Positions 13,898 through 14,291 are shown, numbered from the stretch's first letter. The stretch is 64,000 nucleotides of DNA from Escherichia coli (GCF_050920415.1 NZ_CP169309.1); one strand, 5' to 3'. Notes: generated by a model not told the origin, from the sequence alone. Made by a program: numbers and translations.

Positions 13898-14291
13898 TCA
13901 TGAATAAACCCCTTGCTCTATTCGAAAAATGAGCATGGCAACTTTCAACACCCCCTCTTCTGAGTCCATTATCTCAGAGGGCGTTTTCCACTGTAATGCT
14001 CTGTTTGGTTCATTGCACCAGTTTAATGCTGCACTTTCGTTACCTTCAAAAAGATCAATAGCCTTTTGAAGAACGTCATTTTTTGTCAGCATGTTTTACA
14101 CCTGAAGACGTTTTGAGTGCTTCGATAAGACTACTTCGCTCTTCCTCTGTCATCCGGGATATGAGCAATGCAAGTTCTGCTGTTGTCTGATCATCACAAA
14201 AAAAGTAGTTCAACGGCACGTTTAACTCTGCCGCCATCCGTCGAATCGTATCAATATCGGGGACATGGCGCCCTTTCTCATAATGATTCAT
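13898..14291 (-). pseudogene. 3' portion of an Xre-HTH / DUF2384-type (Xre/MbcA/ParS-like) antitoxin gene, split by a frameshift
   Basis: The 71-aa ORF (14076-14291) carries the Xre HTH continuation (MNHYEKGRHVPDIDTIRRMAAELNVPLNYFF). The overlapping 64-aa ORF (13898-14092), in another frame, carries a DUF2384-like toxin-binding domain (NWCNEPNRALQWKTPSEIMDSEEGVLKVAMLIFRIEQGVYS). Confidence 0.6.

Follow-up and report, generated by a model that had tools for sequence, protein, structure and literature searches.

Overlapping controller and DUF2384 genes downstream of hipA in Escherichia coli: a probable degraded, toxin-less cassette from a GInt-type island

Does a split helix-turn-helix (HTH)-DUF2384 gene that lacks a neighbouring toxin gene represent a broken antitoxin? 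This question is raised by positions 13,898 to 14,291 of a 64,000-nucleotide stretch of Escherichia coli DNA (GCF_050920415.1, NZ_CP169309.1; hereafter the window). Here two overlapping minus-strand open reading frames (ORFs) encode a DUF2384 domain and a part of an HTH protein, and a third ORF with a further part of the HTH protein lies beyond a gene for a leucine-rich repeat (LRR) protein. An earlier note, made from the sequence alone, read the three ORFs as one Xre-DUF2384 antitoxin gene that had been frameshifted, split by insertion of the LRR gene and left without its toxin. The analysis reported here points to a different origin: the region is likely to be a degraded, toxin-less two-gene regulatory cassette, the first cargo of a GInt-type island (a genomic island with three integrases) inserted downstream of hipA.

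The three ORFs were confirmed at 13898-14092 (minus strand, 64 aa), 14076-14291 (minus strand, 71 aa, overlapping the former by 17 nt) and 16862-17041 (minus strand, 59 aa). The start of the middle ORF is the internal Met40 of the HTH gene, and homology to the intact gene reaches past this ATG to 14325-14331 (codon 29). Profile searches of the three fragments in Pfam and NCBIfam, together with the predicted fold, upheld the domain assignments of the earlier note. The HTH fragments match the Pfam families HTH_19 and HTH_3. Pfam PF09722 (Xre_MbcA_ParS_C) is matched by the 64-aa ORF along its whole length (model positions 2-51 of 51, E 1.4e-9), as is the C-terminal half of NCBIfam NF049845 (Xre_ParS_antitoxin, E 1.8e-14); the NCBIfam scores remain below the curated whole-protein cut-offs (53.8 vs 90 bits for NF049845 and 38.8 vs 57 for TIGR02293). 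The AlphaFold model of the 64-aa protein has a predicted local distance difference test (pLDDT) score of 94.7. Its 13 best PDB matches in a Foldseek search are all antitoxins (ParS, P. putida Xre, VPA0769, NatR and MbcA; template modelling (TM) scores 0.69-0.83); the protein is 34% identical to VPA0769, and the solved ParS chain comprises 72 residues. The closest canonical HTH-DUF2384 relatives are 41-50% identical to it across the domain. The translation is identical to a coding sequence in locus L002 annotated as WP_000956368.1, the common E. coli allele, and the exact 64-aa sequence is recorded on at least 1000 contigs. The decay that had been ascribed to the whole module was found in the HTH gene and its control region, whereas the DUF2384 ORF is intact.

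The intact locus of E. coli MB64 (L001) encodes a 110-aa HTH protein (WP_071587438) and a 64-aa DUF2384 protein (WP_106661617) with the same 17-nt overlap as in the window. The two-ORF layout is also present in Pectobacterium (L004-L006), in a metagenome contig (L007) and in the diverged loci L018 and L020 (14-nt overlaps). Altogether, the HTH gene of the uninterrupted loci codes for 107-110 aa and the DUF2384 gene for 63-69 aa, and the overlap measures 14-17 nt. The supposed frameshift in an antitoxin gene is thus the native state in L001, L004, L007, L018 and L020. Members of the respective 90% clusters (64 aa for DUF2384 and 110 aa for the HTH protein) occur in E. coli, Klebsiella, Salmonella, Citrobacter and Raoultella. 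Pairwise comparisons at saturating dS gave ratios of nonsynonymous to synonymous substitutions (dN/dS) of 0.14-0.26 for DUF2384 and 0.04-0.15 for the HTH gene; between close E. coli and Pectobacterium alleles the DUF2384 ratio is about 1-2, based on few substitutions. Because dN/dS is low and the layout is native in the relatives, sequence comparison indicates that the DUF2384 ORF and the HTH gene are real genes that are maintained separately.

The class of the HTH protein was assigned with the reconstructed intact 110-aa protein, of which the window has fragments only. It matches PDB entry 3lfp, C.Csp231I, over residues 9-93 (E 2.4e-22), PDB entry 4o8b (E 1.7e-21) and the PADLOC model Control_protein (PDLC03667) over profile positions 2-93 of 101 (E 5.5e-26). 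Identity to C.Csp231I is about 50% over 85 residues, which include the extended C-terminal helix. Since it matches the 98-aa C.Csp231I over residues 9-93, the upstream protein is separate and complete, and the idea that it is the N-terminal half of an Xre-DUF2384 antitoxin was not supported. By these matches the HTH protein is a restriction-modification controller of the C.Csp231I/EcoO109I class, a known class of mobile-element controllers, and it is called the controller in the following.

All intact loci carry the identical palindromes ACTTAGGATTGCTAAGT and ACTTAGACAATCTAAG, which lie 34 bp apart from start to start and are separated by a 19-bp spacer. These putative operators have the form of two 15-bp CTTAG-N5-CTAAG palindromes and are located upstream of the controller gene, before a divergent VspR-like gene (L001, 5080-5128; L013, 5483-5531). 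The examined island parts of E. coli and Pectobacterium contain no further operator site, and none was found upstream of the first integrase gene of L012. C.Csp231I recognises CTAAG-N5-CTTAG twice, 18 bp apart (PMC4321490). As in the C.Csp231I/C.EcoO109I class ("motif 8"), the controller gene is preceded by two 15-bp palindromes, and the spacer that separates them is long (19 bp, compared with 18 bp in Csp231I). Unlike C.Csp231I, the controller has no restriction or methylase partner in GInt loci of E. coli and Pectobacterium, where its neighbours are the DUF2384, ginD and VspR-like genes; some relatives lie near restriction-modification cargo (an HNH and a DNA methylase gene in L007, type I systems in L054 and L087). 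A further difference is that the controller of the window is in two pieces and has lost its operators. The label VspR-like is based on precomputed PF27213/PF27192 hits on the Pectobacterium homologue and on 32% full-length identity; the VspR-like and ginC-like proteins of E. coli had no significant Pfam match.

No RES-like ORF was detected in a six-frame scan of the whole window with a single-sequence RES profile, the sensitivity of which is limited. In the window, the gene downstream of DUF2384 is convergent and ginD-like. In the intact relatives with flanks that were read, including Pfam-annotated contexts, a toxin gene was never adjacent, and the single-sequence RES profile found no RES toxin in the 80 species-level loci described below. 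The absence of a RES or ADP-ribosyltransferase toxin gene after DUF2384, as stated in the earlier note, held on re-inspection with this profile. That note had also proposed to look for the intact pair in related genomes: intact two-gene loci were indeed found, but no toxin family lies beside them. A RES toxin gene (NF049844, E 1.3e-46) does follow the canonical relative P0032, a 147-aa protein with an Xre-like HTH and a DUF2384 domain, and P0032 illustrates how a genuine member of such a pair is arranged. The 64-aa protein shares the DUF2384 domain, by sequence and fold, with the antitoxins of the Xre-RES, ParS-ParT, MbcA-MbcT, NatR-NatT and VPA0769-VPA0770 pairs. It differs from these type II antitoxins in three ways: it comprises nothing but a toxin-binding domain, the HTH belongs to a separate protein of HTH_3 controller type and not of the Xre-like type PF20432, and the 64-aa family has no adjacent toxin gene in any relative examined.

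The intact loci also show in which kind of element the two genes reside. The same gene order was found in the strains MB64, NCTC9038 and EH09-18-41, in Pectobacterium L006 and in an IncHI1A plasmid: genes for two site-specific integrases, for a protein of about 790-845 aa and for a protein of 144-167 aa are followed by the convergent DUF2384 and controller genes, the operators, the VspR-like gene and variable cargo. Cargo seen in intact islands comprises retron Ec78, a nucleotidyltransferase/ThiF/MPN set and a Gabija-like pair. In L001, L006, L013, L014 and L107 two of the recombinase genes gave hits to Phage_integrase or site-specific integrase, and no domain was recognised in the third, which agrees with the description of GinC. 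According to two publications, GInts (Tn6571 family) consist of ginABC plus ginD, with cargo that begins right after ginD (PMC5385486), and are noted as carriers of defence systems in E. coli (PMC10121019). The loci described here resemble GInts in having three consecutive recombinase-type genes and a small fourth gene at one end, with cargo directly after it. The searched passages of PMC10121019 and PMC5385486 make no mention of a conserved cassette of controller, DUF2384 and VspR-like genes where the cargo begins. The ginD-like gene of the window matches the ginD profile (L001, L004, L014) with E 2e-74 and aligns to L001 from 4001 onward at 97%. ginB and ginC gave no match anywhere in the window and ginABC is absent, so that compared with GInts the window retains the ginD-like gene only. 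In strain R32_14_1F, which like MFDS1022581 has the arrangement of the window, an ABC-three-component system is located on the far side of the ginD-like remnant.

A scan of one genome per species yielded 148 controller relatives, and 80 loci (L027-L106; 54-97% identity) from Enterobacterales, Vibrionales, Alteromonadales and Oceanospirillales were kept. The operator pair is present in the 34-bp register in 75 of these 80 loci; three have a single site and two are cut by a contig end. A divergent VspR-like gene was found in 55 loci, ginD- or ginC-like genes downstream in nine, a TnsC-like ATPase gene in about 22 (convergent in 21) and a co-directional TniQ-like gene in nine. Relatives that are 54-67% identical to the window controller adjoin TnsC-like or TniQ-like genes in Vibrio, Shewanella and Marinomonas, in elements recognised by these genes alone. 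L087 has TnsA-like, TnsB-sized and TnsC-like genes on one side and VspR-like, helicase and type I restriction enzyme genes on the other; L054 (V. metoecus) is a Tn7-like element with type I restriction-modification cargo and is not VSP-1.

A related arrangement has been reported for type I-F3b CRISPR-associated transposons, in which an Xre protein of about 100 aa related to C.Csp231I is encoded between tnsABC and tniQ-cas and has two upstream motifs (Petassi et al., bioRxiv 10.1101/2020.07.02.184150). Autoregulation and repression of tniQ-cas were shown for this Xre and interpreted as zygotic induction (bioRxiv 10.1101/2020.07.02.184150); these regulators were named RtbC in a review (PMC11406308). 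Both proteins are related to C.Csp231I, are encoded between mobility genes and other genes and have two sites upstream. The cassette described here differs in its probable host element, a GInt (a tyrosine-recombinase island) and not a Tn7-like transposon. In the Tn7-like relatives, moreover, the controller gene is not followed by a DUF2384 gene; weak DUF2384-like matches were seen in L105 at another place of the locus. In both GInts and Tn7-like elements the controller and the operator pair, usually with the divergent VspR-like gene, are found at the boundary between mobility genes and cargo. The same cassette position in Tn7-like transposons across Gammaproteobacteria points to a shared entry-timing regulatory cassette of cargo-carrying elements.

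The distribution of DUF2384 is much narrower than that of the controller: 75 of the 80 species loci lack any DUF2384 gene, and among the 80 it lies directly after the controller only in the enterobacterial GInt clade. Because of this confinement, DUF2384 seems to have joined an already existing regulator cassette at a late stage. Loss of the gene is frequent in E. coli, with an annotated coding sequence in only 14 of 60 evenly sampled records. In L013 it has an in-frame stop and a diverged 3′ end (4920-5140, minus strand), in L014 several frameshifts (5000-5190, minus strand), and both loci have kept the 110-aa controller. They represent the commonest E. coli allele classes, in which DUF2384 is a pseudogene next to an intact controller gene. 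DUF2384 is dispensable, as most E. coli copies have lost it yet retain the controller.

Toxin-less DUF2384 proteins were also observed in other, defence-related settings. In Pectobacterium L004 a 107-aa protein is encoded directly after the VspR-like gene (4581-4904, minus strand), and in L021-L023 the gene for a 65-aa protein has a DUF7661 gene on one side and, downstream of it, a SMODS plus S_4TM pair that is similar to cyclic-oligonucleotide-based antiphage signalling systems (CBASS-like; approximately 5001-5198). In L010 a gene of the GmrSD_C type (DUF1524; 5305-6067) ends in the last codons of the controller (...VKNAEKK), and the usual 17-nt overlap connects it with a DUF2384 ORF of 71 aa that is degraded; recombination within the 3′ end of the controller gene is evident from this chimaera. 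A phage collection contained no homologue of the 64-aa protein.

Several points weigh against a toxin-less regulatory cassette of a GInt. The central base of the half-sites is swapped with respect to C.Csp231I (CTTAG...CTAAG here vs CTAAG...CTTAG), and we infer operator binding and autoregulation of the 110-aa controller from its homologues. The assignment to GInts was made by gene organisation, with integrase matches in Pfam for two of the genes, the promoter and terminator calls are consensus matches only, and a single-sequence RES profile could miss very distant toxin families. Finally, deletion of one base in an A6 run at the junction of the two ORFs fuses them into an HTH-DUF2384 protein, as is seen in the rare variant P0178, in which ...VKHADK is followed directly by NDVIQ..., and a low-level fusion product may be made.

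This last point bears on two alternatives. The junction of the window (14078-14092) reads GAC AAA AAA TGA, that is A6 and then UGA, and A6-UGA is also present in the E. coli, Pectobacterium, L007 and L020 loci. Programmed +1 frameshifting or transcriptional slippage at this run might yield a single HTH-DUF2384 protein from the two ORFs, for which both the shared junction and the fused products on record (P0178 and P0181) would speak. However, the junction sequence of the diverged L018 is wholly different and retains the +1-frame split without an A-run; re-pairing of tRNA-Lys from AAA to AAU in the +1 frame would be poor according to codon-anticodon rules; and the fused variants read ...ADKND..., which is the product of a DNA or RNA base deletion. 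A search of the 90% clusters for fused homologues returned one rare 130-aa variant and one truncated 80-aa variant only: the fused P0178 and the truncated P0181 are recorded on 4 and 1 contigs, respectively, and the split allele on at least 1000. As the slippery site is not kept in L018 despite the same split, frameshifting or slippage as the normal mode of decoding was rejected, and we regard it as extremely unlikely. By sequence, fusion is one mutation away but is not the normal state. That mutation would also suit a single Xre-DUF2384 type II antitoxin of a RES/ParT/MbcT pair, which was frameshifted, then split by the LRR gene and deprived of its toxin gene by deletion; such an origin gains from the rare fused variant, from the domain and fold shared with genuine antitoxins and from the identity to canonical relatives across the domain. 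It is nevertheless very improbable: the split layout is kept in diverged intact loci, one of them with a different junction sequence, the upstream gene codes for a whole controller that has operators of its own, the intact relatives are all without a toxin, and DUF2384 is kept under purifying selection nonetheless. The absence of DUF2384 from most controller-bearing species argues for a late addition to a regulator rather than for half of an old antitoxin. The antitoxin-first explanation is largely refuted, and the view of the locus as the remnant of a toxin-antitoxin module was not sustained.

How would the two-gene regulatory cassette work, and what is DUF2384 for? Judging from its homologues, the 110-aa controller would bind the two CTTAG-N5-CTAAG palindromes and regulate its own gene, and entry into a naive cell would lead to a burst of expression that is followed by repression. 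The DUF2384 gene, with its 17-nt overlap in the +1 frame with the end of the controller gene, would be co-transcribed and, because of this co-transcription, take the output position of the controller circuit. The DUF2384 protein may neutralise RES/ParT/MbcT-type toxins in trans, which would fit its complete toxin-binding fold, its carriage on mobile elements, its faster evolution and its frequent loss. It may alternatively partner island regulators, which would fit its placement after either regulator gene. In its most explicit form the trans-acting role would make free DUF2384 an anti-defence or anti-addiction factor, which GInts and plasmids express in a controller-timed burst against resident or co-transferred NAD+-targeting toxins of the RES/ParT/MbcT type and which is dispensable later. 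Such an early burst would explain both the faster evolution and the frequent pseudogenisation in established chromosomal copies, and trans-neutralisation would, if true, be a new kind of anti-defence function; we consider this proposal unlikely as it stands.

It is likewise unlikely that the 64-aa protein acts as a trans-acting neutraliser in the strain analysed here, for which read-through or a weak promoter would have to provide expression. In favour of this role, the ORF is intact and represents the common allele, the toxin-binding fold is complete within 64 aa (as in the slightly longer solved ParS chain), and the cassette travels on mobile elements including a conjugative plasmid, IncHI1A. 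DUF2384 would stand at the output of a controller whose class shows zygotic induction in its I-F3b relatives, it evolves faster than the controller, with the elevated dN/dS among close alleles resting on few substitutions, and RES-Xre-like loci are very common on Klebsiella plasmids. Against this, no partner toxin has been identified, a consensus scan found no minus-strand promoter-like site between the terminator-like hairpin (14530-14514) and the DUF2384 ORF, and about three quarters of the E. coli copies have lost DUF2384 at no obvious cost. The copy in the window no longer works as a regulatory module, and its DUF2384 ORF is probably not expressed.

Full-text literature searches found DUF2384 in only ten papers, always in toxin-antitoxin contexts apart from a single use as proxy profile for excisionases. 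While the controller adds a new member to a known class, the toxin-less controller-DUF2384 operon at the cargo boundary of GInts appears to be undescribed in this literature. Labels such as "MbcA/ParS/Xre antitoxin family protein" beside "helix-turn-helix protein" misleadingly suggest a broken toxin-antitoxin module, whereas the pair is a conserved toxin-less operon at the boundary between mobility genes and cargo of defence-carrying GInts. The family is of moderate interest; the decayed copy in the window is itself of limited interest.

The degradation of the cassette in the window could be followed from its breakpoints. On the left side, controller codon 29 (14325-14331) directly abuts the final 48 codons of the VspR-like gene. 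DNA homology to L001, L013 and L014 is collinear at 82-84% from 14325 to 14645/14673 and extends about 200 bp past the stop codon of the VspR-like gene. The left side thus corresponds to a 589-bp deletion relative to L001, with which the 5′ part of the controller gene, the operator pair and all but the last quarter of the VspR-like gene were lost. On the right side a 178-bp piece (16896-17073) contains controller codons 1-49 and 32 bp of upstream sequence, with no homology on either side. A decayed 3′ part of the controller gene was not found to the left of 16896, where the best local alignment scored 17 (shuffled sequences: mean 12.6, maximum 21). A single operator half-site is left (CTTAG, 17068-17072), and a search of the window with one mismatch allowed gave no operator site.

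The two controller pieces overlap in 69-bp direct repeats (14263-14331 and 16896-16964) that are 91% identical, differ at 6 of 69 positions and share 21 codons. The differences fall at sites that are also variable among natural alleles, and the two copies carry different variants. Because the 21-codon overlap is 91% identical and carries different natural variants, the two pieces are probably, as judged from their sequences, remnants of two copies of the cassette; a precursor of such a two-copy arrangement was not found. A simple insertion of the LRR gene with target duplication was considered and rejected, since the repeats are only 91% identical and represent different alleles and the left junction runs collinearly into the VspR-like gene. 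Of the gene split by LRR insertion that had been suggested previously, it remains true that disrupted HTH pieces flank the LRR gene; the left breakpoint at the VspR-like gene and the different alleles of the pieces do not agree with a simple insertion. The module is older than the present arrangement, in line with the earlier note, which dated it before the LRR insertion. The repeats lie in the same reading register of the controller; if they recombined, the LRR segment would be lost and a full-length controller ORF restored, with the operators still missing. In the related strain 2013C-4282 (L016, 5008-5095) about 86 bp replace the equivalent of window positions 14207-14325, which make up most of the upstream half of the controller 3′ fragment, including the left repeat; erosion of the remnant thus continues.

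Table 1. Features of the cassette remnant and its surroundings in the window (positions counted from the first letter of the stretch).
Feature	Position	Strand	Remarks
ginD-like gene	13316..13756	+	N-terminus replaced; homology to intact loci begins at 13358; final gene of the GInt recombination module
Stand-alone DUF2384 gene, intact, 64 aa	13898..14092	-	PF09722 and NF049845 matches; second gene of the controller operon in intact loci
Controller (C-protein) 3′ fragment, codons 29-110	14076..14331	-	Aligns to L001 up to position 4976; controller profile E 8e-53
Left 69-bp imperfect direct repeat (codons 29-49 of the controller gene)	14263..14331		Repeat search
3′ remnant of the VspR-like gene, last 48 codons	14306..14470	+	79% identical to residues 139-186 of the 186-aa L013 protein, E 4e-24
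Terminator-like hairpin with T-rich tail, between the LRR gene and the controller/DUF2384 ORFs	14514..14530	-	Consensus scan only
LRR protein gene, between both controller fragments, at the island-cargo position past the VspR-like remnant	15044..16651	-	ORF listing
Right copy of the 69-bp imperfect direct repeat	16896..16964		Repeat search
Controller 5′ fragment, codons 1-49 (16896-17041) and 32 bp upstream	16862..17073	-	ORF runs into 10 unrelated codons (16862-16895); 16896-17073 aligns to L001 4908-5085 at 96%

The LRR protein has 535 aa and matches the SspH2 and SlrP profiles only partially, in their LRR regions; no match was found over the C-terminal ligase part of these profiles. Its gene contains in-frame tandem repeats, namely 9-bp units at 16420-16500 that encode KTS repeats and, near the 3′ end of the gene, PSRP repeats, and the length of the protein differs among strains (annotated homologues, 508-568 aa). 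Directly after the controller 5′ fragment a gene for a 654-aa ankyrin-repeat protein is located (17344-19308, plus strand). PADLOC gave no match for the 64-aa, VspR-like, ginC/D-like, LRR or ankyrin proteins, and an Rfam search of 13000-20500 had no match.

The window contains hipB and hipA, the latter ending at 13188. In an alignment to K-12, the K-12-like sequence 3′ of hipA stops at 13310 and is followed by DNA absent from K-12 up to about 20067. Next to hipBA, at the position of the yneO pseudogene in K-12, an intact autotransporter gene of the ECSE_1600 family is present (1822 aa, 5935-11403, plus strand). The right-hand junction (17074-17200) was found in just 17 of 5426 complete E. coli genomes, and the complete genome that matches the window best is that of strain MFDS1022581 (99.9-100%).

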